From contig CAYORF010000005.1 in assembly GCA_964406305.1 (NCBI GenBank), positions 729 through 64,728 on the forward strand: 64,000 bases of DNA, read 5' to 3'. Numbering within the stretch: position 1 is the first letter of the stretch; the number at the start of each line of letters is the position of its first letter. The stretch comes from an uncultured Anaerolineales bacterium. Its GTDB lineage: Bacteria; Chloroflexota; Anaerolineae; Anaerolineales; UBA11858. This document shows positions 1 through 26,290 of this stretch, piece after piece. The notes under the pieces are model-generated. The model was not told the DNA's origin and ran no database searches. It saw only the letters and a program-made list of their open reading frames with translations. The translations under genes were made by a program, and so were the position numbers.

Positions 1-139
1 GTTGTTTTATTGTTCTAATTATATCAAAAGAAGAGCAGGTTAAAGAAGAAAGACTGTTTTTGTTATTTGTTACAACTTAAATTCAATATTACCGTATATT
101 TTGGTAGATAATAATGATTAGTGATCAGGAGAAGTAGAA

Positions 140-391
140 ATGGCTATTGAAAATAAAAAACTTTATCGCTCGGTAGAAGACCGCATGGTCGGAGGCGTTT
201 GTGCCGGTATCGCGGATTTCTTTGACATCGACCCAACTATTGTCCGGCTGGTATTTGTGCTGGGTTTCTTTGCCTCTGTCAGCGGATTGTTCTGGGCTTA
301 CATCATCATGATGATCGTTGTGCCTGAACACGTCCCGGCGGGAGAGGATATTGTCACGGTTGACGTTGAAGATGTGCCCGAAAATAAATAA
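140..391 (+). CDS. PspC-domain membrane protein
   Basis: 83-aa ORF. KLYRS..DRMVGGVCAGIADFFDIDPTIVRLVFVL matches the PspC-domain signature and is followed by one TM helix. AGGAG RBS upstream. Confidence 0.85.
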   Translation: MAIENKKLYRSVEDRMVGGVCAGIADFFDIDPTIVRLVFVLGFFASVSGLFWAYIIMMIVVPEHVPAGEDIVTVDVEDVPENK

Positions 392-412
392 TTAAGATCT
401 TCTCAAAAAAAG

Positions 413-445
413 AAAAAAGCCCGGATTTCCGGGCTTTTTTCTTTT
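413..445. terminator. Bidirectional rho-independent terminator between convergent genes
   Basis: GCCCGG-ATTT-CCGGGC hairpin (419-434) flanked by an A-run (413-418) and a T-run (435-445). Confidence 0.7.
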
Positions 446-466
446 ATCCACCTGATAAAAGTGGGG

Positions 467-847
467 TTATTCAATAAAGATCTCCACATGTTCCTGGTCT
501 TCTTCATCGACCACATCGACGATCTTCCCGCTCATGTTCTCAGCCAGGGCTTCCTTTACGGCTTCCATCATCTGGGCGTTTTCCATCTCTGGGGTGAACT
601 GGGCGGCGATATTCAAACCGGCATCCACCAACTTCATGGGTACATTGACATTTACCTTGGTTTTTCCCGTAGACATATCAGTAACCCGGACCCGCAGCAT
701 CTGGTTAGATAGGGATCGTTTTGCAAATTTTATTTCCTTTTCACTTTTCTGGGAAAGCGTTGAGATCAATCTTGAGCCTTCCTCAGCCGTAATCTTCCCG
801 TCGCTTATCATTTTGAGGATTTTCATCCGTTCTTCGCTGGTAACCAT
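467..847 (-). CDS. Small protein with N-terminal YvlB/LiaX-type SHOCT-like motif
   Basis: N-terminus EERMKILKMISDGKITAEEGSRLISTL. Acidic C-terminal end ..IVDVVDEEDQEHVEIFIE is paralogous to the end of the 214-aa neighbour. Confidence 0.6.
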   Translation of the reverse strand: MVTSEERMKILKMISDGKITAEEGSRLISTLSQKSEKEIKFAKRSLSNQMLRVRVTDMSTGKTKVNVNVPMKLVDAGLNIAAQFTPEMENAQMMEAVKEALAENMSGKIVDVVDEEDQEHVEIFIE

Positions 848-12987: not shown

Positions 12988-14625
12988 TTACAGCAGTATT
13001 GTTTCATCACCATCAAGCGGTTCGACTTCATCGTTGTTTTCTTCATGATAAGCCGCTAGAAATTCTACCATATCATCTCGACGGCGCCTGGACTCGCCCC
13101 GCTCGTTTTCTTTGATCACGGCATTATAACGCTCAAAGACCTCATTTTGAACAGAGATCGGCTGGGCGACGTGTTCAAAGTCCAACTGGATATCACCGAC
13201 ATTGATGGCGACCGTGCCAAAATCAAATATCCTCTGGATGATATTTTCCCTACTGTAATCCAGGCTGAGGATGTTTTCCAACAACGCAGAACGTTTGGTT
13301 TCCCTGCCAAAGGGTTTCCGATCCAGGTCGATCACTTGTTTGTCCGTGATTTGAAAGCGGTCATTGGCCCAGTCTGCAAAGGCATAAGCCAGGGCAAGAA
13401 CGTTCACCGTAAGAAGAATACCCAGAAGAGAAAAAGATGGGATTGGTATCAGCTGTACCAATCGAGCAAAGAAGGAGACTAGCAGGAGCACAAATAACAA
13501 CCACAGCCACCAGGAGTTCTTGAAGAGGATGAAGATATGTTTCCGGTAGTTGATGACTCCGTTCAGCTCATATCGAGCCCGGAACAGATTAATGAATTCC
13601 TGGAGAGGCGTGATCGTTTCTGTCAGCTGAGGTCCACCCTCCATGACTAGATCGGTGTATTCTTCTTCCTCGTCCATCGGTCCAGTTTCACCAGATAACC
13701 CTAAACGGCTGCGGATGGCCTGGTTGATATTGTCTTTATCAGTTTGTTGGGCCCGAGCCTTGGCGATTTCCTGCGCTTCTGAGATCAGATCCAGCAGCAC
13801 TTCAGGATGGGCCGTATTGCGCATGGGTATGTTCCCGGTATAGGTACGGATGATCACATCTCCATAGCCAAATATGCGCTGCATCTGATTTGAGGAGATA
13901 TTTACAGATAAGATGGATTGGAGCGGTACCTCACGGCGCTGGTCATGAAGCCAGATCACTTTTTCTACCCAGGCAGCCCTGTCGCTGGTGACCAGGTAAA
14001 AATCGTTCCGCCAGTCCAACCAGAGCCAGACCCCCCAGACAATAGAGATCAGGATAGTTATGGCCATGAATATCCCCAGATTCAAATGGAGTAGAATTGC
14101 CCCAATTCCTGTCAAGATTAAGAAAAGGGCTGGGAGAAGTAATTGTCCGTAGAGGACATTGATGTGTTTGCGATCAATAAACCGGATGATCTCCTCAGGC
14201 CCGATCCAGGGGAAATCATTTCTCTGCAGGATGTTTGCGCTTAATTTCAAGGCAGATAACCTGGTTCTGGTGGATGGGTAAGCCGAGAGGATGGCGATAA
14301 AGCCCCGCTTATTTACTGCCAGCAAGGTGGTGTCTTCCAGGGCAGTGGCAGTCTCTTTCCGCACCCCTTCTCTGTGTAATTCTTTATCTCCGAAGTGACC
14401 CCTGGGATTGATGATGATCCCGTTTTGGTTCTCATCTTCAATCAGAACTTTGCCCGATACAACCAGGAAAAAATTCCTACCTGGGAAACCTGCTCGGTAG
14501 AGCACTTCCCCCTCTTCCAGGGATATGGGATTAAAGAGAGGCAGTAATTGCCCCAGCTCGTCATCGCTCAGGAATCTAAAGAGAAAATGGTCATGCAGGA
14601 AGGAAAAGATCGTTTTTGAATCCAT
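12988..14625 (-). CDS. Cyclic-nucleotide-binding domain protein with two TM-hairpin/bacterial PH (YdbS/YdbT-like) modules
   Basis: N-terminal CAP-effector-like domain (FLSDDELGQL..GEVLYRAGFPGRNFFLVVSGKV). Two blocks of paired TM helices, each followed by a PH-like segment (..DFYLVTSDRAAWVEK.., ..DRFQITDKQVIDLDR..). Confidence 0.65.
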   Translation of the reverse strand: MDSKTIFSFLHDHFLFRFLSDDELGQLLPLFNPISLEEGEVLYRAGFPGRNFFLVVSGKVLIEDENQNGIIINPRGHFGDKELHREGVRKETATALEDTTLLAVNKRGFIAILSAYPSTRTRLSALKLSANILQRNDFPWIGPEEIIRFIDRKHINVLYGQLLLPALFLILTGIGAILLHLNLGIFMAITILISIVWGVWLWLDWRNDFYLVTSDRAAWVEKVIWLHDQRREVPLQSILSVNISSNQMQRIFGYGDVIIRTYTGNIPMRNTAHPEVLLDLISEAQEIAKARAQQTDKDNINQAIRSRLGLSGETGPMDEEEEYTDLVMEGGPQLTETITPLQEFINLFRARYELNGVINYRKHIFILFKNSWWLWLLFVLLLVSFFARLVQLIPIPSFSLLGILLTVNVLALAYAFADWANDRFQITDKQVIDLDRKPFGRETKRSALLENILSLDYSRENIIQRIFDFGTVAINVGDIQLDFEHVAQPISVQNEVFERYNAVIKENERGESRRRRDDMVEFLAAYHEENNDEVEPLDGDETILL

Positions 14626-14797: not shown

Positions 14798-16258
14798 ATG
14801 CCTATAAATTTCGGAACAGATGGCTGGCGAGCAGTCATTTCCGACACATTTACTTTTCACAATCTTCGCATGGTAACTCAGGCGATCGCTGATGCAATTC
14901 GTTCTGGACATTGGCATAATAATGACACAGAAAACATCAAACCCGACCCCAATAAGATTGTAGTTGGTTTTGATACTCGTTTTCTCTCCGATCGATACGC
15001 CAGGGACGTAGCTCGAGTGATGGCTGCTAATGGGTATACCGTTTATATCGCCCAGGCAGATTCGTCTACTCCCTCCATTTCTTATGCAGTGAAAAACCTC
15101 AATGCCATCGCCGGCATTGTGATCACCGCATCTCACAACGCTCCTCGTTACAGCGGTGTAAAATTGAAAGCTGCAAATGGATGTTCTGCTTCACCAGAAC
15201 AGTCTCGCAAGGTTGAAGTTTACCTCAATGACAATCAGGAAAGAGGGCGCGGCCCAAACTTGATGGAATGGGATCAGGCGGTTGAAAAAGGTTTGATCAT
15301 CAGTTTTAATCCTATCCCCGAATACTATGAGCATTTGAGAACGCTGATCGATTTTGATACCATCGCTGGCAATCCGCCCAGAGTAGTAGTCGATTCAATG
15401 CATGGCTCCGGAAGGGGTATGATCAAAAGCATCCTCACTGGAACTGGCTGCGAGGTTAGCGAGATCCGTGGAGAAATGAATCCCGGTTTTGGTGGCGCAC
15501 ACCCCGAACCAATCGGCTCACGTCTCGGCGCTCTGGCTGGCGCGATCAGCACTGGGATGGGTAACTTTGGGTTGGCTCTAGACGGCGATGCGGACAGAAT
15601 TGGTGCCATGGATGAAAGAGGAAATTTTGTTGATCCCCATAAAATTATGGCCCTGTCCTTAAAATACCTGGTGGATCATCGAAATTTGACTGGACCTGTG
15701 GTGCGGACTGTTTCAACAACTCGCATGATAGACCGCCTGGCAGCCAAATACGACCTGCCTGTATATGAAACACCTGTGGGATTTAATCATATTGCGGATT
15801 ACATGATCTCTGAAAATGTTTTGATCGGGGGAGAGGAATCAGGCGGTATTTCGATCCAGGGTAATATCCCTGAAGGAGATGGGGTATTGATGGGATTGCT
15901 TTTAATTGAAATGGTTTCTGTTTACGGAAAATCCCTTCACACTCTAGTAAATGAGCTGCTGGAAGAAGTTGGACCGGCTTTTTACGAAAGAAAGGACCAG
16001 CGTTTGAAATACCCCATTCAGAAAAAAGAGATGGTTCAATATCTACTGGATAATAAACCAGCAGAGATTGGCGGAGTGAAAGTCACAGAACTCCTAACCA
16101 TTGACGGTGTGAAATATATAATGGATGATGATTCCTGGCTTTTGATCAGGCCGTCAGGCACAGAACCGGTCTTGCGTGTTTACGCTGAGGGGAGAACTGA
16201 GGAAATGGTTCAGGCTTTACTGGGATATGGAGAGGAAGTCGCTGAAAGTATCACCTGA
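14798..16258 (+). CDS. Phosphoglucomutase/phosphomannomutase family protein
   Basis: Active-site loop TASHNAPRYSGVKL, metal loop LDGDADRIGAMDE, sugar loop GGEESGG, and phosphate-binding RPSGTEP. Confidence 0.88.
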   Translation: MPINFGTDGWRAVISDTFTFHNLRMVTQAIADAIRSGHWHNNDTENIKPDPNKIVVGFDTRFLSDRYARDVARVMAANGYTVYIAQADSSTPSISYAVKNLNAIAGIVITASHNAPRYSGVKLKAANGCSASPEQSRKVEVYLNDNQERGRGPNLMEWDQAVEKGLIISFNPIPEYYEHLRTLIDFDTIAGNPPRVVVDSMHGSGRGMIKSILTGTGCEVSEIRGEMNPGFGGAHPEPIGSRLGALAGAISTGMGNFGLALDGDADRIGAMDERGNFVDPHKIMALSLKYLVDHRNLTGPVVRTVSTTRMIDRLAAKYDLPVYETPVGFNHIADYMISENVLIGGEESGGISIQGNIPEGDGVLMGLLLIEMVSVYGKSLHTLVNELLEEVGPAFYERKDQRLKYPIQKKEMVQYLLDNKPAEIGGVKVTELLTIDGVKYIMDDDSWLLIRPSGTEPVLRVYAEGRTEEMVQALLGYGEEVAESIT

Positions 16259-16283
16259 TCCGGATCACCACTTTATTGAATCA

Positions 16284-16327
16284 AACAACCACAGCGGAAG
16301 AGAGAAATTGCTGTGGTTGTTATTTTT
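16284..16327. terminator. Rho-independent terminator between convergent genes
   Basis: 12-bp perfect stem AACAACCACAGC (16284-16295) / GCTGTGGTTGTT (16310-16321) followed by ATTTTT. Confidence 0.65.
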
Positions 16328-16358
16328 AATCAGGTGACAGGGTATAAAACCATCTGAA

Positions 16359-16943
16359 TCAGTTGGTTGAGGTCCTTAAGCGCCGGCTGAGGATGATGAT
16401 CACCATTAATACTCCTGCAACCAGGACCAGCCCCGGAACCCCGAAGTCGTCGGCGAATCCCGTATCCGGGAGCGCAGTTGCTGTTGGAATCGGAGTAGTC
16501 CCTCCTCCACCAGCTTGTTGTGTCAGCAGGGCGGCAACCGTTTCTGTGGCGGCCGGATCGTCAGTTCCATCCGGTGTATTAGTGGGCGCCAAGACGGGAG
16601 TTGATGTGCTGCTAGGAATCATGGTAGGAGTATTCGTAGGCGGCGATGTTGCTGTAAAGGTGGGGGTCATTGTTACCTGTTTGGCAATTGCCGTCAGCTG
16701 GGCTTCCTCTGCCACTGCTGTATTGGTCGCATTTATCTCAGCAACCTGAGTCTGTTGGCCAGTATCACGACTTGGCAAGTACAGGACAGCATAGGCAGCA
16801 ATCGCCAGCAAAGCGATCAGGAGAATACCTCCAAGGATACCTGCAACGATCAGGAAGGTTCGATTTGAACCTCTGCTGGTTGAGATAGTCTCTTCACTCC
16901 CAATTTCTTCGAAATCCATATCTTCAAAATCGTTCATTCCCAT
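16359..16943 (-). CDS. Thr/Pro-rich surface protein with C-terminal LPDTG sorting-signal-like tail
   Basis: Acidic N-terminus, TM helix (FLIVAGILGGILLIALLAIAAYAVLYL), T/P-rich spacer, then LPDTG + hydrophobic helix + RRLRTSTN. Confidence 0.65.
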   Translation of the reverse strand: MGMNDFEDMDFEEIGSEETISTSRGSNRTFLIVAGILGGILLIALLAIAAYAVLYLPSRDTGQQTQVAEINATNTAVAEEAQLTAIAKQVTMTPTFTATSPPTNTPTMIPSSTSTPVLAPTNTPDGTDDPAATETVAALLTQQAGGGGTTPIPTATALPDTGFADDFGVPGLVLVAGVLMVIIILSRRLRTSTN

Positions 16944-16996
16944 AAGTCTCTCTCCTCAATTTACCCTGTCAGATCTTCCGTAAATTGGTTTAGTTT

Positions 16997-18055
16997 TCAA
17001 TCCTTAAGAATTTCCAGGTTAGTAAGCGGTAATATTGTACTCTTTTCATTGGCAAACCTGACTTCTACGAGTTTGGTTTCGATGCCATTGGATAGGCCTT
17101 GTTTGCCAGAGATTATTTTATCAATTTCCCCAATTTGCGGGGCTTGCGGTCCATTTATAATGATAACCTTTTTACCCACTTTGAGTGTTTCAGCTTCTGA
17201 GGGTAAATCTGGTTCAGAAGTAGATGATTGTGAAATGATACCCTCGGGGAAGTTTCCCCGGAAGGTGTCAAGTTCCTGGGCATTCAAAGCAATATTCTTA
17301 TCTTTGTTTTCGATCAGGATAGCTTCAGCTGCCTTGTTCATGGGTGTTTCACGGAAACCATCAATTACCATGATCGGGTAATCTATCTTTTTTGCCAGGG
17401 GTATTAGCTCCGAGGACATGCTGCCCAGGATCAATCCCTTGATTGGTACGATACCAGCAGCTTTCAGCACTTCTGGTTCCCTGCAGTATCCAGCTGTAAT
17501 GATCGAGCCCCTGAATCCTATATTGAGCTGTTCTACGACCAGTTCCTGCAGCATATCATTGCTGATAGGCTGTACGACGCCGTAGGTGATCTTGCCGTTA
17601 CCCCATACTCCTTGTATAAGGGCTCCTTTGGTTTCTATAATGGCGCCCCGTTCAGGGATGATATTTGTGACAGTTCCTTCCATGCCCGCTTGTAGTTCGA
17701 ACTCGGGGGAAATGATCTCGTATAATACTTTTCCTTCTCCTGCTATCCTTACGATTCCAGGCTGAGGTGCCCGAACCACGCGCTGGAATATTCCCACTGG
17801 TCCTGCGATGATATCTCCCTGTACTAGGTCTTCACCAGCCTGACGCTGGAGAAGTTCATCCGCCCGGACTGGGTTTACATTAAGACCCTGGGCAATATCT
17901 AGGAGAACGAACTTGGGAGCGAGAGGAGCGACCACAATCACATCTGCGGGGGATACTTTTTGCATCCGACGGACGAGGACATGACCGGCTACAGGTAGGA
18001 CCCGTTCCCGTTTTATGCTTGTGAGTGCATGGATATGTTTAACTTTACTGATCAT
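16997..18055 (-). CDS. Hypothetical soluble protein (352 aa), operon partner of the MutL-like ATPase
   Basis: Long ORF in operon context. No family recognised by eye. C-terminal KVGKKVIIINGPQAPQIGEIDKI resembles a KOW/SH3-like strand pattern (weak). Confidence 0.5.
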   Translation of the reverse strand: MISKVKHIHALTSIKRERVLPVAGHVLVRRMQKVSPADVIVVAPLAPKFVLLDIAQGLNVNPVRADELLQRQAGEDLVQGDIIAGPVGIFQRVVRAPQPGIVRIAGEGKVLYEIISPEFELQAGMEGTVTNIIPERGAIIETKGALIQGVWGNGKITYGVVQPISNDMLQELVVEQLNIGFRGSIITAGYCREPEVLKAAGIVPIKGLILGSMSSELIPLAKKIDYPIMVIDGFRETPMNKAAEAILIENKDKNIALNAQELDTFRGNFPEGIISQSSTSEPDLPSEAETLKVGKKVIIINGPQAPQIGEIDKIISGKQGLSNGIETKLVEVRFANEKSTILPLTNLEILKD

Positions 18056-18081
18056 TTTTTTATCAGGTTTATACCTGTAAC

Positions 18082-19839
18082 CTATTCATATTTACTGAAC
18101 GTTTTTCTCCAGGTTTCGTTCCTCTTCCTGTTTTTCTCCTGGTCAATTGAAAATTGAAGTGGACGTCCCCTGGCATCGATTACAATGCCTAAGACGCCTC
18201 CAATCGCATTCACCTTGCCAGATTTTCCCGGACCTCCCATGCCAACATCAAAACGATTTAGAGGGCGGAGGTGCAAGGATACTTTTTCACCAAGGTCCAC
18301 AGGAAGAACAGATAAGGATCCATATTTTATATCTCGAGTAAATGACCTTCCATCTTCCCGGTTGACACGAATCCTGAGGATCGGTGTTCCTGGTCTGGCA
18401 ACTCCTAAAGGTGCAATAATCGTGCCCAAATTCAGGAATGTACTGGATTCTATCACCTGAACGGTTAACAAGGGGTTGGCCTCGGCCGCAGCCCCCAATC
18501 CGGGTAATAAACCGTTTTGATCCAGGGCCAGAGTTGTTACACCAGTTGGCTGCAGGCCGTCTAGCAATACAGACAGTGATTGATACTGTTTAGGTGCCAG
18601 GGTCAAGATCCTCCCCGACCCAATGATCGGTTCCATATATGGCAGCAATGTACCTCCAGCTCCAAGCTGTTTAGCCAGGCTGGGGATAGTTTGTTCTGCT
18701 GCATATCTTAGAGCTTGTTTGGCAACCGCCAGTTCGACTTCAAGGTGCTCAACATTGAGAGGAAGTGAACTAGGGTAAATCGATTTATTATAGATGTAAT
18801 CTTGGATCTCCTGATCAGATAGCTCAAATGGCATCCAGCGTTTGATCAATTCCAGGGAATTCTTCTCGATTACACCACCTGAACCAGAGCCCACTCCTAA
18901 ACCGGGAAATACCCGGAGAGTTTCTTCTCCGTTGAATGCGCCGGCCATGATTGTAGCATCGGAACCTATATCAACTCCCAGAACGCCTTTTTCTGGCTCG
19001 TATTTTTCACTCAGGAATCGGATTGCCCGACCAAAAGCGGACGCTGTCGAAGTGAATGTTCCCTCGGCCCAAGAAATAACTTCACTGAGACCGCCAGTCT
19101 GTTTTATCCGTATATCCTTATATACTTCATTGATCTCTTTCTGGGCGGGCTGGATATTCTCTATCCCGAGCACAGGTTGGATATTGGCAGCAACTCTCAA
19201 TTTGCTGATCTTAGCGAGCCCGGATTTGACCTCGTCTTGAAGCTGTTCGTTTCCAGCGAATAGGATATGTGGGCGCTGACTTTCGTCCATCATATAACTG
19301 GATAGGCCGATGCTTTCGAGGATGCTGAGAAGAGATTGTGAGGCACCATTATTTGTTCCCCCGGTAATAATGATCAAGTCGGGTCGTTTTCTGGTCAGGA
19401 GGTTGATCCTGTCAGAGGATGTCCGGTGATCGTTCAGTGAAATCTCGGCGATGATATTCGCGTAAGTGGTGTGGGCTAGATGTCGGGCATTTTGTAGAGA
19501 GACTGTATCTAGGAGGCCTACTGTGACAACAGATATCGGATTACCGACAGACATGGTCGCAACAAAGATATCAACTCCCTTGTTATCCGGAGTGCTAGGG
19601 ATGATTACGCCATCTTTTTCGCTTAACAATACTCGACCAGTTATAAATTGGAGTTCTTCCAACGAACGCCATATTCCCTCGGTAACATCAAAATGGGGCA
19701 CCCCTGCAGTTGTCGGCGCACTCCCCACAGCCACAAAGCGGTATTTACCGCTCACCACATCGAAAAACAACGATCGGGTAATGGTACTTCCGATATCAAC
19801 TGCTATAACTGATTTTGCTGCAATAATAGTTTTATCCAT
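18082..19839 (-). CDS. ASKHA (actin/Hsp70-fold) ATPase, MutL/EutA-like, internally duplicated
   Basis: IAVDIGSTITRS (phosphate-1) and DLIIITGGTNNGA (GGxDGG-like) in the first half. A second VLGVDIGSDATIM block in the second half. Confidence 0.6.
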   Translation of the reverse strand: MDKTIIAAKSVIAVDIGSTITRSLFFDVVSGKYRFVAVGSAPTTAGVPHFDVTEGIWRSLEELQFITGRVLLSEKDGVIIPSTPDNKGVDIFVATMSVGNPISVVTVGLLDTVSLQNARHLAHTTYANIIAEISLNDHRTSSDRINLLTRKRPDLIIITGGTNNGASQSLLSILESIGLSSYMMDESQRPHILFAGNEQLQDEVKSGLAKISKLRVAANIQPVLGIENIQPAQKEINEVYKDIRIKQTGGLSEVISWAEGTFTSTASAFGRAIRFLSEKYEPEKGVLGVDIGSDATIMAGAFNGEETLRVFPGLGVGSGSGGVIEKNSLELIKRWMPFELSDQEIQDYIYNKSIYPSSLPLNVEHLEVELAVAKQALRYAAEQTIPSLAKQLGAGGTLLPYMEPIIGSGRILTLAPKQYQSLSVLLDGLQPTGVTTLALDQNGLLPGLGAAAEANPLLTVQVIESSTFLNLGTIIAPLGVARPGTPILRIRVNREDGRSFTRDIKYGSLSVLPVDLGEKVSLHLRPLNRFDVGMGGPGKSGKVNAIGGVLGIVIDARGRPLQFSIDQEKNRKRNETWRKTFSKYE

Positions 19840-19844
19840 GATCC

Positions 19845-20549
19845 CTAAAATGAAGAGAATAATTGAAAACCAATTGAGTTCAGGAAAGCCCAGAATGAGG
19901 ATAATCTCTCTACCAGGGCGGCCAGGGCAGTCAGGAATACACCAGCGTACAAGGCACCAAAGGTTATCGCCAGAAAGACCTTCCCTACTTTACTTGCATA
20001 TTCGATTATCGGCAGCCTTTTATCGGATTGTCCGGGTGAATCCTGGGTTCCAAAATGAAAATAGATCAGGGTAGTGACTGTTCCCAGGACAACGATGATT
20101 CCATTAATTGCTTGGTCCCAGCGGTTTGTGGTGATGGTATAGGCCGATGGATCCACGCTGTTGATTGTACCCAAGATTTGGGGGAAGAGTGTGCCAGTGA
20201 TCGCACCGCCGATGGCTGCTGCAGCCCCAATTCCAACCAAGATGGCAACTGACCAGTTACCAAGCTTGCGGAGAGGCGTCACTTTGAAAAACAAGAAAAC
20301 ACCGGGTATGAAAAGCAGGATCGATAATAAACGTTCTCCCTGTGTACCCTGGATGAGCGGGATGATTAAACGCGGGATCAACACATTATTGACTGTGACG
20401 ATGGCAACATATCCGGCAGCGACACCAATAAAAATGTGGATTGCCAACCGGAAAAACGGATTATCACCGAGTAAATAGCTGAAGATCAAGAGCGTCAGCA
20501 AAAATCCCAAGGATATTCCAATGAAGTCCATCATATTTGCCATATTCAC
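19845..20549 (-). CDS. Polytopic membrane protein (234 aa), unknown family
   Basis: At least 6 hydrophobic helices. 4-nt overlap with the upstream 1000-aa gene. Confidence 0.65.
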   Translation of the reverse strand: MNMANMMDFIGISLGFLLTLLIFSYLLGDNPFFRLAIHIFIGVAAGYVAIVTVNNVLIPRLIIPLIQGTQGERLLSILLFIPGVFLFFKVTPLRKLGNWSVAILVGIGAAAAIGGAITGTLFPQILGTINSVDPSAYTITTNRWDQAINGIIVVLGTVTTLIYFHFGTQDSPGQSDKRLPIIEYASKVGKVFLAITFGALYAGVFLTALAALVERLSSFWAFLNSIGFQLFSSF

Positions 20550-23548
20550 TTAACATCTCCTGCAACTCTGGATCTGTGGCGGGAGAACAGGGACAAAACG
20601 CCATTTGCCAATCCGCCAATAAAAATCGTACCAACAGTGATGATGATACCCAAATTGAATGGAAGCCAGGCTGCGGTGGCCAGATTTGGTCGGTTCAACA
20701 GCTGTTCATAATTCATGCTATCAATAATCCCGGAAACATAACCTTTTAGCAATTGGGGTGATGAGCGGAAATAAGGTTGGATCAATGGCTCAGCTTGAGC
20801 GCTGACTACCATGTTCAAAGGGGTGTCTTCCAGGATAGTGCCCACTTGCTCGATCCAGATCTTAGCTGTATCTGGATCATCTGTAATTACTAGAACCATT
20901 GCAAAATCATTTATTGAGTCAACTTTCAAAAGAGGGGGAGATCCCCAGGCATTGCTGCCGTCAAAGGCCAGGGGGATTATCTTCTTTGGTGCTACAACGA
21001 AACTTAACAAGCCAGCTGATTCGCCTGGCAAATAACCCAGGTTGATGTAGTGCTGGGTATGGATGTAATCGTGTTTTCCTTGGGTGGTGGCTAGGAAATG
21101 ATCTGCCAGGGCTGGTCCGGTAGGCTGAGTTGAAATAAAGGATAGATAAGTGCCTTGTTTCATCAAGTGGTCAACGACACCAGCCGCCGCGGCATATAAT
21201 TCTCCTGCAGAGGCAGGCTGGTAATCAAATGCGATCAAGACAGGCTGACCATCGTACAAACCCTCGATCTGTTCATATAGAGCCCCGTATCCCGAATTTA
21301 GAACCTGGGCAGAAGTGGGGGGTTCTGTTTTAACAACTCCGCCAAAAATGATCGTCCCTGCTGTGGTTACCAGCATGATAATAGCAATCAACCACCGCAA
21401 TACTCTTTGGGTTGCAACCGGAGCGGGTTTCAGGATGGTTTTTGTTTTGTTCTCATCTGCGATGAGCTTCTTCAGTACATTGACATAATCTTGGTGGGAT
21501 TTAGAGGCAAATAGATCAAGTGGTTTTCTGGCGGCTTTCTCGGGATCAAAGGCACTTTCTGCTTCAGCAGGTAGCACACTTGGGATTCCTGCCAGAGGCC
21601 CGTAATTTTCAATATAATCCTCATCCTCGGAAAGTCCAGTGGCATCGGTCGATTCTACGACCGGACGCATGGCTTCTACCCAACCGGGTAGTTCTCCCTG
21701 GGATAATTCATCTTCAAAATCTTCAAACACAGAATCTGATGATGCAGATGTCAGCCAGCTGGGCAGCTCATCGCTGAAGAGATCGTCAAAAAATTCTTCT
21801 TCTTCGACCTGGAATGGGTCAATGACTGAATCGGTTCCATCTTCGCGTCCTGCTAAAAATTCCAAATCTTCGGGGATCTTCTCAGCGGCCTTCTTTTTTT
21901 CTTCCGCCCAGGATGGGAATTTGATCTGTTGGGAATCACTCAATCCTGTGGCCGGTTCGTCATCATCATCTTCTTGTGGAGGGAGCTTATCAGTGATACC
22001 CCTTACAATTGCAGGTTTATATTCCTCGTTAGTGCGGTCTTTTTTCAGCAGGAATGCATTTAAGGATTCGTCATCCCCATCAATATGGAGCCAGGCTGGT
22101 AAGTCGCTAGCGGGAGCGGCCTCATCGCTATCAGCAGCTGGCGGCGAATATTCCGGTGGCTTTACCTCTTCTGATATTTCCTCTGCCGGTGTATCAGACA
22201 CAGAGAGCCAATCTGGGAAGGATGAATCCTCATCCACCATATCGCTGCTTTTATTCAGTCTTTTGATCTTGTCCAGCCAATCAGTTTGAGGTTTTGAGGG
22301 CTCTGGTGGAGTTTCAACGGTTGACTTTCTGGAATCAGGGTCTTGGAGCATGTCCAACCAACCAGAATCCTCGCTGAAACCAGGAGAGCCAAACTCCGGT
22401 AAAGGATCTTCATCTTCATCATAAAGGTCAGGGCGAAAACCGATAGGGCCTGGTTCGCTTTCTGGATCTGGCGTTAAGAAGTCCAATTCCCCTGCCGGTT
22501 CGCCCGCGGGTTGTTCTATTACGGCAGCTCCTTCCTCTCCATCCAGGGATGCTAAAATGTCCAGCCCCCCGGCAGTATCTGGGTCCGGTTGTTCAGTTAT
22601 CACCGGTTTTTCTTCAACGCTCGGAGTGGTCAAGAAATCCCATTCATCAACAGGGCCCTTGGATGGTTCTTCCAGGACAGGCACTTCTTCAGCAGAAGGC
22701 GATGTTAGGAAATCCCACTCATCAACTGGACCCTTTTCAGGTTCTTCTTTCTGAGGAGGTTCATCCGCAGCAGTGGATGAAGAAAGGAAATCCCATGCGT
22801 CAACCTGTTCCTCGGTTTGTTCTTCTTTCTGAACAGGTTCTTTTTCTGTAGAAGGTTTAGCTAGGGAATCCCACGCCTCTTCGGGTTTTTGGGCAGGGCT
22901 TTCCTCTTCAGGAGTGCTGTCATCGGAAAGTGAGCTAAGAAAGTCCAAATTGTCCGCAGGTTCTTCAACTGGTGGAGTTTTTCCTGATAGGCTGTCTTCG
23001 GCGGAAGGCTCGGTAAGGTACTGCCAATCTCCCCCGGTTTTTTCTACAGGAGTTTCTTCTCCTAACAGTTCATCACGTGCAGAGGGTTCCAAGAAAGGGT
23101 CGAAGGCAGGAGGATCCGGTTGCTTCTTTTCTTCCTCCTCGGAACTTGTAAATGGATCATCAGTTGCGAAGAAATCGTCCAATCGGGAGGAAGCTTCGGA
23201 TTCTTCTACCGGTTGTGTGTCTCCTCTTGTGTCGGAGGCATCCAAAGGATCCGGGGCGGGGATCAGATCATCCAGCCTGGAGAAATCATCCGTTGATTCC
23301 GCAGTTTGGGTTGCCTCTTCCAGGGGTTCTTCTGGAGACAATAAACTGTCTAAACGTGCGCCCTCATCCAGTGGTTCCGCGGATTGGACTGGTGTTTTGG
23401 TATCGTTATTGTCGAATAGATCGTCTCGCAGGGAGGGACTATCGAGTGGTAGGGGATCCACGCTGAACAAGGGAGCACTACAATGATCACAAAAATTATG
23501 ATCATCTGTATTGGGTTTTCCGCAGGTTGGGCACAGGATCTCAGTCAT
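20546..23548 (-). CDS. Zinc-ribbon protein with ~690-aa acidic repeat region, two TM helices and a ~220-aa extracytoplasmic domain
   Basis: N-terminal CPTCG..(N11)..CDHC. Asp/Glu/Pro-rich region with repeated (D/E/P)-x-W-(D/L)-x-L motifs. TM at about residues 717-739 and 959-986. Confidence 0.75.
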   Translation of the reverse strand: MTEILCPTCGKPNTDDHNFCDHCSAPLFSVDPLPLDSPSLRDDLFDNNDTKTPVQSAEPLDEGARLDSLLSPEEPLEEATQTAESTDDFSRLDDLIPAPDPLDASDTRGDTQPVEESEASSRLDDFFATDDPFTSSEEEEKKQPDPPAFDPFLEPSARDELLGEETPVEKTGGDWQYLTEPSAEDSLSGKTPPVEEPADNLDFLSSLSDDSTPEEESPAQKPEEAWDSLAKPSTEKEPVQKEEQTEEQVDAWDFLSSSTAADEPPQKEEPEKGPVDEWDFLTSPSAEEVPVLEEPSKGPVDEWDFLTTPSVEEKPVITEQPDPDTAGGLDILASLDGEEGAAVIEQPAGEPAGELDFLTPDPESEPGPIGFRPDLYDEDEDPLPEFGSPGFSEDSGWLDMLQDPDSRKSTVETPPEPSKPQTDWLDKIKRLNKSSDMVDEDSSFPDWLSVSDTPAEEISEEVKPPEYSPPAADSDEAAPASDLPAWLHIDGDDESLNAFLLKKDRTNEEYKPAIVRGITDKLPPQEDDDDEPATGLSDSQQIKFPSWAEEKKKAAEKIPEDLEFLAGREDGTDSVIDPFQVEEEEFFDDLFSDELPSWLTSASSDSVFEDFEDELSQGELPGWVEAMRPVVESTDATGLSEDEDYIENYGPLAGIPSVLPAEAESAFDPEKAARKPLDLFASKSHQDYVNVLKKLIADENKTKTILKPAPVATQRVLRWLIAIIMLVTTAGTIIFGGVVKTEPPTSAQVLNSGYGALYEQIEGLYDGQPVLIAFDYQPASAGELYAAAAGVVDHLMKQGTYLSFISTQPTGPALADHFLATTQGKHDYIHTQHYINLGYLPGESAGLLSFVVAPKKIIPLAFDGSNAWGSPPLLKVDSINDFAMVLVITDDPDTAKIWIEQVGTILEDTPLNMVVSAQAEPLIQPYFRSSPQLLKGYVSGIIDSMNYEQLLNRPNLATAAWLPFNLGIIITVGTIFIGGLANGVLSLFSRHRSRVAGDVK
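22586..22735 (-). repeat. Coding tandem repeat (2 x 25 aa) inside the 1000-aa gene
   Basis: KGPVDEWDFLTSPSAEEVPVLEEPS / KGPVDEWDFLTTPSVEEKPVITEQP (residues 272-321). More diverged copies extend over about 22454-23041. Confidence 0.8.
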
Positions 23549-23550
23549 GA

Positions 23551-24195
23551 TTATTCACCGTACGGTCTATCAGTTCCCATTAGGACCCGGATACCGGTTG
23601 TTATTGTGCCCAGAGCAATACCCAACAGCAGCCCACGGGCTCCTCCCAGGGCTGGGACACGAAGGATCCAATCGTGAATCACATGAAGGAATGGAAGCGT
23701 AGCTGGGGGTATCGAAAAAGACCCCAGCAGGACTAATAAAACAACAAAAAAGAAGACTATTGAGAACAGGTCCATCCGCTTGCGTAGGATGCTGGCGGCT
23801 GCATAAGTAAGGCTGACAGCTGTTACAGCAAGCAGACTGGTTTCAATTGGAAGCTGAATATTAGTGAAGATCCAGCTGGTCATCTGGAAGTTAGGTTTAC
23901 CGACCAGATAGGTCTGGACCATGTCAATAATGCCAATAATTAGTGTGGCCAGCAGAGCAATTACAAGGATCAGGCTGTAACCGGAATTTTCGCTATCCGC
24001 TCCTAGTTTTTTAATATGGACGGTGATTAGATTGATAATGCCAACAAGAAGCGCAACCGCTGACAGGACCAGGCCGGCTCTCAGAAGGATAATGCGGATA
24101 TTTATAAATGCGGGAATGAAATATCCGGCCAGGACAATAATGCCGACTCCAATAGCAACTGCGGTAGAGACAGGAGATTTCAGATTAATCTTCAA
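23551..24195 (-). CDS. Polytopic membrane protein (214 aa), unknown family
   Basis: At least 5 hydrophobic helices. ATGA overlap with the upstream gene and 2-nt gap to the downstream gene. Confidence 0.65.
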   Translation of the reverse strand: MKINLKSPVSTAVAIGVGIIVLAGYFIPAFINIRIILLRAGLVLSAVALLVGIINLITVHIKKLGADSENSGYSLILVIALLATLIIGIIDMVQTYLVGKPNFQMTSWIFTNIQLPIETSLLAVTAVSLTYAAASILRKRMDLFSIVFFFVVLLVLLGSFSIPPATLPFLHVIHDWILRVPALGGARGLLLGIALGTITTGIRVLMGTDRPYGE

Positions 24196-24989
24196 ATTGA
24201 ACCTGCCAGGATTTTTTCAATAAATACGTCAATTCCAAGAATATTCAGTAAAACGCTGGCCAGGATGATAAAAATGATGATCCAGCGAACGACATCTTGG
24301 GCTGATATGCTTGCCTGGTGCATTTTTCCTGCACCGAGGTAGGCCCCTCCTGCAAATAATTCTTCACCAATTAGAGGATCTGAGGCGCTGGCATAGATGA
24401 CAGCCTGAGCAGGGAGCTGAGAAGTGCCGGCGATGGTTGGGCTGCTTTGCCTCTCACCAGCAGTCGTGATCCAGGTGATTTCGTTACCAAACCACCCCGT
24501 GTGGATATTGGCGGAGACATTATCGTTCCGGATTGTGCTCAAAGTGCCTACAGCGTAAGAAAAAGGTGTAACGCCGACCAACTCTCCGGATGGGTTTTTA
24601 ATGTTATCTGAAATACTGATCGCTTTTGAGCTTCCTTTGATCGTATCCTGCGCCAGAATTGATATTACAGGGTTTCCGGTGGAGGCAACCGGGGGATGAT
24701 CGCAAACAGAGGATTTTTCAATGACCTGTTTTAGGATACCTAATCCAGCCAATGCGGCAGCGGATTCGGGACCGGTAATGCCCCCACTGCCCAGGGAAAT
24801 ATGCAGCTGAGAACCGTCCTCAACAGCAACTTTGATTTCCTGGATGATTTTGTCGTAGGCGGGAATCGGGCGGATATTATAGGTTTTTCGGTCCTTATTA
24901 ATGAACGAAAAAAAGACCATTAAACCAACAAAAAGTACAATTACCATTAATCCCGTGAAGCCAGTAGCAGACACAGATATTTCCTCCAA
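24192..24989 (-). CDS. Bitopic membrane protein (265 aa) with N- and C-terminal TM helices, unknown family
   Basis: TM FTGLMVIVLFVGLMVFFSF and TM VVRWIIIFIILASVLLNIL flank a ~200-aa Gly/Ser/Ala-rich domain (GSGGITGPESAAALAGLGIL). Confidence 0.6.
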   Translation of the reverse strand: MEEISVSATGFTGLMVIVLFVGLMVFFSFINKDRKTYNIRPIPAYDKIIQEIKVAVEDGSQLHISLGSGGITGPESAAALAGLGILKQVIEKSSVCDHPPVASTGNPVISILAQDTIKGSSKAISISDNIKNPSGELVGVTPFSYAVGTLSTIRNDNVSANIHTGWFGNEITWITTAGERQSSPTIAGTSQLPAQAVIYASASDPLIGEELFAGGAYLGAGKMHQASISAQDVVRWIIIFIILASVLLNILGIDVFIEKILAGSI

Positions 24990-25244
24990 CTAGGTTGTTG
25001 GTTCGTAATTTCTGAGTGCCTCGATAAATAACGTTGTTTCGGATGGGTCTTCTAAAATCTTGGCTAAGTCCTGGGATTGATCTTTAGGGATGAAAGGGGA
25101 CAAAACTGGTTGGCTGAGATAGACCAGCTGGGCGCCAAGCAGATTCATTGGACCCAGAGCTTCCAAGAAGGTTGCGGTGAGGTTCTGGAGCCGTAATTTA
25201 TACAGCGATTCAATCCATTTTTTCCTGTTTTCTTGAATTTTCAT
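24990..25244 (-). CDS. Small hypothetical protein (84 aa), first gene of the operon
   Basis: ORF abuts the next gene with 0-nt spacing. No family recognised. Confidence 0.5.
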   Translation of the reverse strand: MKIQENRKKWIESLYKLRLQNLTATFLEALGPMNLLGAQLVYLSQPVLSPFIPKDQSQDLAKILEDPSETTLFIEALRNYEPTT

Positions 25245-25414
25245 AACTCAGAATTAGTATAGCATAGTTTCATTATTCAGGCGTACAGCCCTCAATCTAC
25301 AGGATATGACTAATGATATCCAAAGGGGATTATTTCTCATACTGTACCTGGCCGATATAATGGCATAATCTATATTACAGTAATGTGTATTGTTGTCAGG
25401 AGTGGGAGGGTATT

Positions 25415-26290
25415 ATGCAGCCAGATTTAACTGAACAGATCTTGGAATTGGTGCGTTTAACAGCTACGGACTTACCGCCGGATGTTGAAAAAACCCTCCG
25501 TGAGTCACGGGATCAGGAAGAAGAAGGCTCTGCTGCCCAGGGCGCACTGGATACGATCCTGGAAAATGTAAAAATGGCCCGAGAAAATTCTACTCCAATC
25601 TGCCAGGACACGGGAACGCCGTTGTTTTTTGTGAATTATCCAGAAGGTTGGAGCACAAGAAAATTAACCAGGCAGATCCAGGAGGCAGTGATCCAGGCCA
25701 CAAAAAAATCTTACTTGAGGCCCAATTCTGTCAATACTCTGACTGGGAAGAATACCGGTGATAACAGTGGTGATGAACATTATCCCGCGATCCACTTTGA
25801 GGAAATAGACGGTGATCAGCTAGTGGTCGATCTGATTTTGAAGGGTGGGGGTTGTGAAAACGTCAGCACCCAATATAAACTTCCGGATACTTCTCTTGCT
25901 GCCGGCAGGGATTTGGATGGTGTGAGGAAAGTCAGCCTGGATGCTGTGGTCAAAGCCCAGGGAAAAGGCTGTGCTCCCGGAACTCTGGGTATCGCCATCG
26001 GCGGAGACCGTGGATCCTCTTATGTTGCTTCCAAGGAAGCGTTAAAGAGGCAGCTGGATGATACAAACCCGGATCCTGCCCTTGCAGATATGGAAGAAAA
26101 AATAACAGATCAAGCCAATCAGCTGGATATCGGTCCGATGGGTTTTCATGGCAAGACCACTGTATTAGGGACAAAGATCAAGAACTTGCATCGCTTGCCG
26201 GCCAGTTATTTTGTGTCGATTTCCTATATGTGCTGGGCTTACAGGCGCAGGAAAATGGTTTTTGAAAACGGTAGTGCCAAGTACGAATAG
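25415..26290 (+). CDS. Fe-S type hydro-lyase (class I fumarate hydratase / tartrate dehydratase) alpha subunit
   Basis: ..ENSTPICQDTGTPLFFV.., ..LRPNSV.. and ILKGGGCEN motifs. Start set at the ATG at 25415 preceded by GGGAGG; the ORF is open from 25385. Confidence 0.8.
   Translation: MQPDLTEQILELVRLTATDLPPDVEKTLRESRDQEEEGSAAQGALDTILENVKMARENSTPICQDTGTPLFFVNYPEGWSTRKLTRQIQEAVIQATKKSYLRPNSVNTLTGKNTGDNSGDEHYPAIHFEEIDGDQLVVDLILKGGGCENVSTQYKLPDTSLAAGRDLDGVRKVSLDAVVKAQGKGCAPGTLGIAIGGDRGSSYVASKEALKRQLDDTNPDPALADMEEKITDQANQLDIGPMGFHGKTTVLGTKIKNLHRLPASYFVSISYMCWAYRRRKMVFENGSAKYE

Follow-up and report, generated by a model that had tools for sequence, protein, structure and literature searches.

A conserved eight-gene operon of Anaerolineae built around a GlmL-related ATPase, with a proposed role at the cell envelope

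Actin-fold ATPases of the MutL/GlmL type are usually helpers of vitamin B12 enzymes. Other actin-fold proteins dock on the short cytoplasmic tails of bitopic envelope proteins, as in the PilM–PilN and FtsA–FtsN pairs. In the Agl-Glt machinery of Myxococcus, GltJ combines a cytosolic zinc ribbon, a flexible linker with partner-binding motifs, a transmembrane (TM) segment and an outside part within a trans-envelope complex (PMC11135422). The switch formed by this zinc ribbon and linker is read by MglA, and it has been proposed that modules of the same type act as switches more generally, in operons that encode receptor-like membrane proteins (PMC11135422). Here we describe an eight-gene operon that shares features with each of these systems. 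It occupies positions 16359 to 25244 of a 64,000-nucleotide (nt) stretch of contig CAYORF010000005.1 from an uncultured Anaerolineales bacterium; this whole stretch is referred to below as the window. We propose that the operon encodes one ATP-driven complex linking cytoplasm, membrane and cell wall, a functional reading that we judge to be evenly poised between right and wrong.

The block is a real, tightly packed operon. It consists of eight consecutive open reading frames (ORFs) on the minus strand, running from 25244 down to 16359, with products of 84, 265, 214, 1000, 234, 585, 352 and 194 amino acids (aa). An earlier note on this DNA had described a nine-gene operon; only eight ORFs exist, which is also the number of products that the note itself listed, and the ORF listing bears out the coordinates and the shared strand that it gave for them. 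Apart from the 585-aa ATPase and its 352-aa partner, the six remaining products are membrane or small proteins. The genes, in operon order, are:

Gene 1, 24990 to 25244, minus strand: 84-aa small protein with a W..WA..L...LEA.GP...LGAQ..Y.GQP motif
Gene 2, 24192 to 24989, minus strand: DUF6754 protein (PF20539) with a TM helix at each end; the probable start is the GTG at 24974, giving 260 aa
Gene 3, 23551 to 24195, minus strand: 214-aa polytopic membrane protein, from hydropathy and alignment
Gene 4, 20546 to 23548, minus strand: 1000-aa protein with zinc ribbon, acidic arm, TM1, ectodomain and TM2
Gene 5, 19845 to 20549, minus strand: 234-aa polytopic membrane protein, whose GTG start overlaps the gene 4 stop (GTGA)
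Gene 6, 18082 to 19839, minus strand: 585-aa ASKHA ATPase of the MutL/GlmL Pfam family, with the MutL-type domain at aa 9–465 (nt 18445-19815)
Gene 7, 16997 to 18055, minus strand: 352-aa cytoplasmic partner with a barrel-sandwich hybrid domain (aa ~47–118), an alpha/beta middle part and a KOW/SH3-like barrel (aa ~290–350)
Gene 8, 16359 to 16943, minus strand: 194-aa Thr/Pro-rich protein with predicted anchors at both ends

Conservation of the block was assessed in a one-genome-per-species scan with the ATPase alignment, which returned at least 575 loci. The best 80 of these, all from Anaerolineae or Chloroflexota metagenome-assembled genomes and with 39–89% identity, were analysed, and members of the block were sought in their six-frame ORFs using the eight window proteins as queries. 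Each of the eight proteins was matched in 68–80 of the 80 loci, and all eight genes are present in the same order and on the same strand in 67. Ten of the other 13 loci are cut by contig ends, and in the last three the 84-aa gene alone was not detected. Gene order is also kept in deeper ATPase clades (30–35% identity), represented by loci L082, L084 and L085 and by a JGI contig. The earlier note had treated the block as one unit and named scattered homologues as the finding that would speak against this; with identical order in 67 of 80 loci and in the deep clades as well, the homologues are decisively syntenic. Judging from the sequences of these loci, the eight-gene operon occurs across the class Anaerolineae. 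The named carriers, all Anaerolineae, are Anaerolineales, Anaerolinea thermophila, Bellilinea, Ca. Villigracilis and Aggregatilineales.

The 585-aa protein matches PF13941 over aa 11–465 with E = 2.2e-61 and 208.5 bits, against a cut-off of 27. It falls below each NCBIfam cut-off, scoring 95.4 versus 475 bits for NF040745 (GlmL), 66.2 versus 600 for NF040744 (Or-4) and 66.3 versus 204 for TIGR01319. A reference GlmL from the glmS-glmL-glmE locus of Peptoclostridium (L088) has 461 aa, is 23% identical, aligns with aa 9–464 and stops there. Residues 466–585 (nt 18085-18444) form an extra, family-specific C-terminal region composed of a beta-rich domain and a helix, which includes a D555-x-R-G-R-P motif kept in 141–146 of 151 sequences. 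This C-terminal domain has no relative in Pfam or the Protein Data Bank (PDB); a match of the D-x-R-G-R-P region to a hotdog thioesterase has an E of 1.1 and was set aside as not significant. A library search yielded 593 clusters (50% identity) at E < 1e-30, and the best 150 of these are almost all full-length proteins of ~575–600 aa. These comparisons indicate that the 585-aa protein is derived from the GlmL/MutL family and is clearly not a canonical GlmL. The database label of its homologues, ‘glutamate mutase L’, is misleading, as is the label ‘NusG’ that databases give to some partners.

All three sets of ASKHA nucleotide-binding residues are present in the 585-aa protein: the phosphate-1 (DxG..T), phosphate-2 (DxG) and adenosine (G) motifs. 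Among the 151 sequences, D15 is kept in 135, G17 in 136, T21 in 137, D290 in 132, G292 in 137 and G409 in 148, and this conservation makes it likely that the protein binds and hydrolyses nucleotide. An AlphaFold2 model of the protein has a predicted local distance difference test score (pLDDT) of 71. Foldseek comparison of this model with the PDB gave 81 matches at E <= 0.001, and the best 50 listed are all of the ASKHA fold. The top matches are acetophenone carboxylase and N-methylhydantoinase; together with Ppx/GppA, Hsp70/Hsp110, Ssz1, PilM and BcrAD they are neighbours at the superfamily level only, with TM-scores of at most 0.2 when normalised by query length. The earlier note had called the protein a duplicated ASKHA ATPase, a label that describes simply the normal two-lobed ASKHA fold. 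It had also called it an orphan of the MutL type with no B12-dependent mutase beside it. The family assignment stands, and the 64-kb window contains no B12-binding, MeaB or mutase homologue, but the statement that none is present has to be qualified by a B12-type flank in 17–18 of the 80 orthologous loci (see below).

Gene content identifies the 352-aa protein as the constant partner of the ATPase. Weak matches recur among 40 members of its family, with RnfC_N in 29, biotin-lipoyl in 15, KOW in 9 and NqrA_N in 6. The AlphaFold2 model (pLDDT 53) is confident for the two barrels alone and the middle part is poorly modelled, so that a fold search is informative for the terminal barrels only. Foldseek matches to this model were the KOW domain of eS4, PetP, Tudor and one RnfC chain, RnfC being the sole whole-protein match. 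The middle part contains a near-invariant QGVWGNG motif. The longer segment GAL[IV]QGVWGNG (aa 144–154, 17594-17626) resembles the CW_7 repeat core of Cpl-7 lysozyme (PDB 5i8l; profile E 2.4e-7 over three repeats). This likeness to a peptidoglycan-binding repeat is probably a coincidence of motifs, the 352-aa protein being cytoplasmic and free of an export signal.

The ATPase and a 352-like protein are also encoded as a pair, without the membrane genes, at loci L081 and L087. At L087:1-4513, a 623-aa MutL-like ATPase and a 352-like gene adjoin a divergent pyruvate:ferredoxin oxidoreductase (PFOR), and the five upstream membrane and small genes are absent. At L081:1100-9430, a distant relative of the ATPase, P0390, has 1304 aa and is composed of a signal peptide, a TSP3 repeat, a large N-terminal part, a TM helix and a MutL-like domain that carries the same C-terminal motif as the 585-aa protein; P0390 also gives weak Hydantoinase_A matches. 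The gene before that of P0390 encodes a homologue of the 352-aa protein with 448 aa (hhalign probability 100%, E 1e-38), and the gene after it a membrane-anchored M1 peptidase of 1020 aa. In this version of the pair the ATPase is physically tethered to the membrane. The recurrence of the pair without the membrane genes suggests that a long MutL-type ATPase and a 352-type protein form a core two-gene module. The neighbours of P0390 are ywmB-like, murA-like and spoIID genes, in an order that we take to be that of Bacillus, and from this we infer that the L081 contig is Bacillota-like. A search of metagenomes with the partner protein of L081 gave a single weak locus.

The 1000-aa protein is the largest product of the operon. 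Its segments, from the N-terminus, are:

aa 6–27, nt 23468-23533, minus strand: zinc ribbon (Zn_Ribbon_1, E 1.6e-5), predicted cytoplasmic
aa ~30–700, minus strand: acidic disordered arm with repeated [ED]-L-P-D-W-L-type motifs
aa 715–741, nt 21326-21406, minus strand: TM1, from hydropathy
aa ~742–958, nt 20675-21325, minus strand: conserved extracytoplasmic domain, predicted to lie outside between the TM helices
aa 959–988, nt 20585-20674, minus strand: TM2, from hydropathy, followed by a basic tail

A zinc ribbon of the form CPxCG...CxxC is common to the N-termini of most orthologues. The acidic arm varies in length and contains ~22–27% Glu plus Asp. Sixty-eight percent of its tryptophans belong to a single motif, for which 823 tryptophan contexts give the consensus E-[ED]-L-P-D-W-L-x-x-L; an orthologue carries 2–16 copies of it (median 8). 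Tandem repeats at the DNA level are negligible in this gene, and the repetition exists at the level of protein motifs only. Searches with the family alignment found no Pfam or PDB match for the ~220-aa ectodomain. The orthologue at L082:1857-5666, from a clade whose one named member belongs to Aggregatilineales, is without the zinc ribbon, and its ectodomain is separated from the last TM helix by an insertion made up of a ~220-aa Thr/Pro linker and three SH3_3 (SH3b) domains (E 1e-24). With these three domains, the segment between the TM helices is placed on the outside of the cell, and binding to peptidoglycan is suggested. At the same locus the ATPase has 744 aa and the product of the last gene 349 aa.

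The 194-aa protein combines predicted anchors of two kinds. At the N-terminus, an acidic tail ends in an invariant N-R-T-F motif right before the long TM1, which is followed by a Thr/Pro-rich stalk. The C-terminus carries a tripartite signal, with LPDTG (aa 158–162, nt 16458-16472) and FADDFGVPG followed by a TM helix and RRLR. The consensus among orthologues is LPxTGFADEVGxPG, a TM helix and RRLR, and 69 of 79 orthologues fit this pattern. The TIGR01167 profile (LPXTG_anchor) gives no match to the window protein at E <= 0.1 and weak matches to 12 of 26 orthologues, the best with E 0.0013. An ORF with the sortase motif TLxTC was sought in the window, where there is none, and in the flanks of the 80 loci, where one doubtful 152-aa ORF was found. 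A sortase-type link of Thr161 to the wall, combined with retention of the N-terminal anchor, would make the 194-aa protein a tether between membrane and wall. The tail itself (aa 1–24, 16872-16943) includes NDFEDMDFEEI, which is similar to the acidic-aromatic DEWDFL/PDWL motifs found in the 1000-aa protein. The 194-aa tail and the 1000-aa acidic arm might be ligands of the same cytoplasmic partner.

The other four products are membrane or small proteins. The 84-aa gene is the least conserved member of the block, with a homologue in 68 of 80 loci that is always the first gene; it was not detected in L084, and its product has no Pfam or NCBIfam match. The gene 2 product matches PF20539 (DUF6754) with E = 3.6e-25 and 89 bits against a cut-off of 27, aa 14–257 aligning with profile positions 13–254, and has no PDB relative; DUF6754 is a family without a known function. 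An Arg-rich stretch after TM1, read with the positive-inside rule, predicts that its soluble domain is cytoplasmic. Neither of the two polytopic proteins is related to a Pfam family. The 214-aa protein has invariant N55, H60, E118 and R187 and a C-terminal G-x-D-R-P-Y-G tail. Assignment of this protein as an ABC-2 transporter was rejected, with an ABC2_membrane score of 19.7 versus 26.9 bits in one of 25 members and no ABC ATPase in the block. The 234-aa protein is present in 78 of 80 loci and carries an FSYLxGDNPLFR motif.

Database searches place few of these components. Pfam, NCBIfam and PADLOC searches of the eight proteins and their family alignments gave just PF13941, PF20539, the zinc ribbon and weak hybrid-barrel and KOW signals, with no PADLOC match for any of the eight. 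Sequence and profile searches of the PDB returned no meaningful relative for the ATPase, its C-terminal domain, the 352-aa family, the ectodomain or DUF6754. All-against-all hhalign comparison of the eight families revealed no paralogy: the two polytopic proteins are unrelated to each other, and so are the two proteins with a domain between two TM helices. The earlier note had been right in outline about the products (DUF6754, MutL, zinc ribbon, TM helices and LPDTG), and its statement that most components lie outside named families is borne out by the Pfam, NCBIfam and profile searches. The literature searched contained no description of DUF6754, of PF13941 in this setting or of the PDWL motif, and nothing relevant on ASKHA proteins of Chloroflexota or actin-like proteins of Anaerolineae.

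In the arrangement that we favour, the 585-aa ATPase and the 352-aa partner would form a cytoplasmic engine or hub that docks on the cytoplasmic faces of a membrane platform. The docking faces would include the DUF6754 domain, the zinc ribbon and arm of the 1000-aa protein with its ~8 E-[ED]-L-P-D-W-L motifs, and the acidic tail and N-R-T-F motif of the 194-aa protein. Contact with peptidoglycan could be made at two points: by the ectodomain of the 1000-aa protein, joined by SH3b domains in Aggregatilineales-type orthologues, and by the 194-aa protein, which would stay anchored in the membrane at its N-terminus and is probably attached to the wall through its LPxTG-type end. Assembly, remodelling or the transmission of force where membrane and wall meet in these single-membrane filamentous bacteria would be powered by the binding and hydrolysis of ATP. 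Candidate processes served by such a complex are wall growth, septum or filament integrity, and surface-layer organisation.

We also put forward, tentatively, a more specific account that we think somewhat doubtful but possible. A GlmL-family ATPase would have been taken from the chaperoning of B12 enzymes to become the motor or hub of a trans-envelope machine in single-membrane filamentous Chloroflexota. Together with its hybrid/KOW partner it would engage the PDWL array on the zinc-ribbon protein and be coupled mechanically to peptidoglycan through the ectodomain, with SH3b domains in some lineages, and through the doubly anchored tether. The ATPase–partner core, fused to secreted-type domains in the Bacillota-like contig, would then be a general module for ATP-driven coupling across a membrane.

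Several observations weigh against a membrane-to-wall complex of this kind. The SH3b domains are found in one clade only, and apart from the doubtful 152-aa ORF no sortase gene lies in the window or in the ~1.4 Mb that flank the block at the 80 loci. For five of the eight products no relative with a known function was detected, the AlphaFold2 models are mediocre (pLDDT 71 and 53) and the fold matches are at the superfamily level. Membrane topology is based on hydropathy and the positive-inside rule, and the protein–protein contacts within the complex are ones that we infer.

The position and signal of the 194-aa protein could instead reflect an export or sorting apparatus for this protein, or for another surface polymer, in which the 214- and 234-aa proteins serve as channel or processing enzyme and the ATPase as energy source. 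The locus would then resemble dedicated sorting systems in which the target gene lies beside the sorting genes. The block always ends with the 194-aa gene, whose Shine-Dalgarno sequence is the strongest, and conservation of the 194-aa signal well past LPxTG suggests a specialised recognition step. Elsewhere in the ORFs of the same ~1.4 Mb of flanks the signal recurs in one spurious-looking 82-aa match only, which together with the lack of a nearby sortase would suit a dedicated system, as would the glycosyltransferase and DegT aminotransferase upstream in L084. We nevertheless consider an export function unlikely: the 214- and 234-aa proteins are unlike sortases, exosortases, rhomboids and known transporters, an ASKHA ATPase as motor has no precedent in known export systems, and the pair at L081 and L087 has no 194-like gene beside it. 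The parallel between the 1000-aa protein and GltJ (PMC11135422) raises a different possibility, that of a transmembrane signalling or switch module in which the 1000-aa protein senses the wall or exterior and the ATPase and its partner act as a chaperone-like reader of the disordered arm. The Hsp70-family fold matches, and the succession of ASKHA domain, beta domain and terminal helix in the 585-aa protein, are consistent with such a reader. However, an output domain (kinase, cyclase, DNA-binding domain or sigma/anti-sigma factor) is missing from the block, as is a GYF domain, the L082 orthologue is without the zinc ribbon, and eight invariant genes that include a wall tether exceed the needs of a sensor. 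A switch of this type is, in our view, distinctly unlikely.

The remaining alternatives concern the ATPase itself. The earlier note had pictured a membrane or envelope assembly with an actin-fold ATPase, and had suggested cytoskeletal, filament or cell–cell functions for it. The envelope part is the best reading of the locus, by virtue of the L082 SH3b domains and the conserved LPxTG-type signal, whereas nothing in the analysis supports the cytoskeletal, filament and cell–cell part. The 585-aa protein would, on a cytoskeletal reading, polymerise within a membrane-anchored cytoskeleton in the manner of MreB/RodZ/MreCD, FtsA or PilM/PilN. Its ASKHA fold, intact ATP motifs and match to PilM would fit, as would the filamentous habit of the hosts and the N-R-T-F tail beside the 194-aa TM helix, which recalls the tails of PilN and FtsN. 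The GlmL/MutL clade is, however, treated as non-polymerising (PMC5597319), the protein has no Pfam or NCBIfam match to MreB, FtsA, ParM or PilM, and its best folds are hydantoinase-like proteins, Ppx/GppA and Hsp70, at the low query-normalised TM-scores given above; polymerisation therefore seems quite improbable. Those same top matches, acetophenone carboxylase and N-methylhydantoinase, would agree with a membrane-held hydantoinase- or oxoprolinase-like enzyme that acts with ATP on a small molecule or a lipid-linked envelope precursor. The weak Hydantoinase_A matches of P0390 point the same way, and the hybrid domain of the 352-aa protein recalls carrier or swinging-arm domains. Such an enzyme is very improbable, since the TM-scores are very low, a HyuB-type partner is missing, informal inspection of the hybrid domain revealed no conserved biotin/lipoyl-attachment lysine motif, and the flanks hold no conserved substrate-pathway genes. 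Membership in the Pfam MutL family, the ‘glutamate mutase L’ label and the divergent B12-binding subunit and MeaB-type GTPase genes upstream of 17–18 of 80 loci would be explained if the protein were a standard accessory or reactivating factor of the GlmL type for a B12-dependent mutase whose genes lie elsewhere, the membrane genes being unrelated to it. We regard this as extremely improbable. The protein scores far under the NF040745, NF040744 and TIGR01319 cut-offs, shares 23% identity with a 461-aa GlmL that has no C-terminal domain, and lies in a window devoid of B12-binding, MeaB and mutase homologues; an Rfam scan of 15.5–26.5 kb gave no match, cobalamin riboswitches included. Other clades have PFOR or different genes in place of the B12 flank, while the eight-gene block is unchanged.

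The spacings between genes claimed in the earlier note are right for four junctions, namely +2 (23551/23548), +5 (19845/19839), +26 (18082/18055) and +53 nt (16997/16943). The two 4-nt overlaps are not ATGA, as had been claimed, but TTGA at 24192-24195 and GTGA at 20546-20549, and the reported 0-nt junction (24990/24989) applies to the longest-ORF reading only. Homologues of the 265-aa ORF have 260 aa, and a GGAGGA Shine-Dalgarno sequence lies 7 nt ahead of the GTG at 24974, which indicates that the true gap between the 84-aa gene and the 265-aa gene is probably +15 nt. Two features border the block:

16284 to 16327, no strand assigned: 12-bp-stem hairpin between the convergent gene 8 and phosphoglucomutase-like gene; RNAfold -18.1 kcal/mol on the minus strand
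25245 to 25384, minus strand: AT-rich divergent intergenic spacer of 140 nt, the presumed promoter region

The hairpin had been taken as a terminator that closes the block. Its 12-bp stem is real, but the T-run, ATTTTTAA, comes after it on the plus strand only, so that the hairpin better suits the terminator of the convergent phosphoglucomutase-like gene, or a bidirectional one. For the operon it is probably a bidirectional terminator at best. Terminator-like sites on both strands of 16000-25600, the block included, number 10 versus 10.1 in shuffles, which is chance level. The AT-rich spacer said to open the block is confirmed, with 65% AT against 52% for the window. It contains TGcTATACT, an extended -10-like element at 25264-25256, ~12 nt ahead of the first ATG of the block, that of the 84-aa gene, which has no Shine-Dalgarno sequence upstream. 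The TGcTATACT element may be a promoter with a very short leader. A further promoter-like match lies in the spacer at 25340-25313.

The neighbours of the block in the window include two genes with counterparts at other loci:

14798 to 16258, plus strand: phosphoglucomutase/phosphomannomutase-like gene that converges on the cluster, with the hairpin 16284-16327 in common
12988 to 14625, minus strand: gene for a 545-aa membrane protein with an N-terminal cyclic-nucleotide-binding-like region, which recurs downstream of the cluster in 16 loci

The convergent phosphoglucomutase-like gene is found in 46 of 80 loci and also at L085. Upstream and divergent, a B12-binding mutase subunit and a MeaB-type GTPase flank the cluster in 17–18 of 80 loci, and PFOR is the upstream neighbour of the full cluster in 11. 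Variation of the flanks between clades, with the block constant, suggests that selection acts on the block itself. Where the B12-type flank occurs, the gene for the B12-binding mutase small subunit lies ~56 nt upstream of the first gene, in divergent orientation, and a gene for a MeaB/ArgK-type GTPase adjoins it; neither is present in the window. The loci with this flank are L025, L027, L028, L034, L048, L052, L053, L055, L056, L061, L063, L065, L066, L068, L069, L077 and L078. The flank could reflect synteny specific to a clade, or be a faint vestige of the B12-related ancestry of the ATPase. In L084, a deep clade without the 84-aa gene, a family-2 glycosyltransferase and a DegT-type aminotransferase (L084:2736-3482 and 410-1624) lie directly upstream of the cluster, and a bPH-domain protein is encoded on the opposite side of the cluster from the position of the 545-aa-type gene.

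Anaerolineae are abundant in sediments, digesters and activated sludge, but almost nothing is known in molecular terms about the biology of their envelope and filaments. The block remains invariant even where its ATPase has diverged to ~30–40% identity, a hallmark of core cellular machinery. For seven of the eight proteins the annotation is hypothetical, DUF or, misleadingly, ‘glutamate mutase L’. If the proposed complex exists, it would be a new kind of actin-fold-centred envelope machine in which a lineage of B12 chaperones has been re-used in a structural or mechanical role, and a systematic mis-annotation would be corrected. The parts list and the motifs make the system directly testable.

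The cluster matches no described kind of system, be it Rnf/Nqr, ABC-2, Agl-Glt, pilus, divisome or defence. A role in anti-phage defence was rejected given the absence of PADLOC matches and the conserved chromosomal position, with the phosphoglucomutase-like neighbour in 46 of 80 loci. Like RnfC and NqrA, the 352-aa protein begins with an RnfC_N/NqrA_N-type hybrid domain (29 of 40 members), and small polytopic membrane proteins are encoded alongside. An Rnf/Nqr complex was nevertheless discarded: the 352-aa protein has no Fe-S or NADH-binding motifs, the membrane proteins have no Rnf/Nqr Pfam matches, and the fold match comes from a low-confidence model. The 194-aa protein shares with the LPXTG sortase substrates of monoderms an LPDTG motif, a hydrophobic helix and RRLR that follow a Thr/Pro-rich wall-spanning stretch. 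It differs from them in having a long N-terminal TM anchor behind an acidic tail rather than a cleavable signal peptide, in its extended motif (TGFADEVGxPG) and in the lack of a nearby sortase gene.

The ATPase has likenesses to several characterised proteins. Its ASKHA core is homologous to that of GlmL/MutL (PF13941; NF040745, TIGR01319), but GlmL has 461 rather than 585 aa, the difference being due to the invariant C-terminal domain added in the 585-aa protein. The 585-aa gene lies among membrane-protein genes whereas glmL lies between glmS and glmE, and GlmL operons have no counterpart of the constant 352-aa partner. As in Hsp70/DnaK, an ASKHA domain is followed by a beta-rich domain and a terminal helix, and Hsp70, Hsp110 and Ssz1 are among the fold matches; unlike Hsp70, the protein has no HSP70 Pfam match, its TM-scores are at most 0.2 and its C-terminal domain has no detectable relative. 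By analogy, the PDWL motifs could serve as client-like peptides of an Hsp70-like 585-aa protein. The operon resembles PilM–PilN(–PilO) and FtsA–FtsN in that a cytoplasmic ASKHA protein, with PilM among its fold matches, is encoded beside bitopic proteins with a short motif before the TM helix. It differs in having no kinship to them in sequence families and no pilus or divisome genes, and tail binding is here only proposed. For GltJ, the NF033761 profile gives weak matches in all 26 scanned orthologues of the 194-aa protein (best E 2.9e-6, ~20 bits versus the 450-bit cut-off). These matches span the TM helix and the Pro/Thr-rich stretch and are hence probably compositional. Membership in the Agl-Glt machinery was rejected, the scores being below the NF033761 cut-off and GYF, TonB-C, MglA/MglB and Agl motor genes being absent. 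The likeness to GltJ lies in the layout of the 1000-aa protein, in which a zinc ribbon, a motif-bearing linker, a TM helix and an outside part follow one another in the same order.

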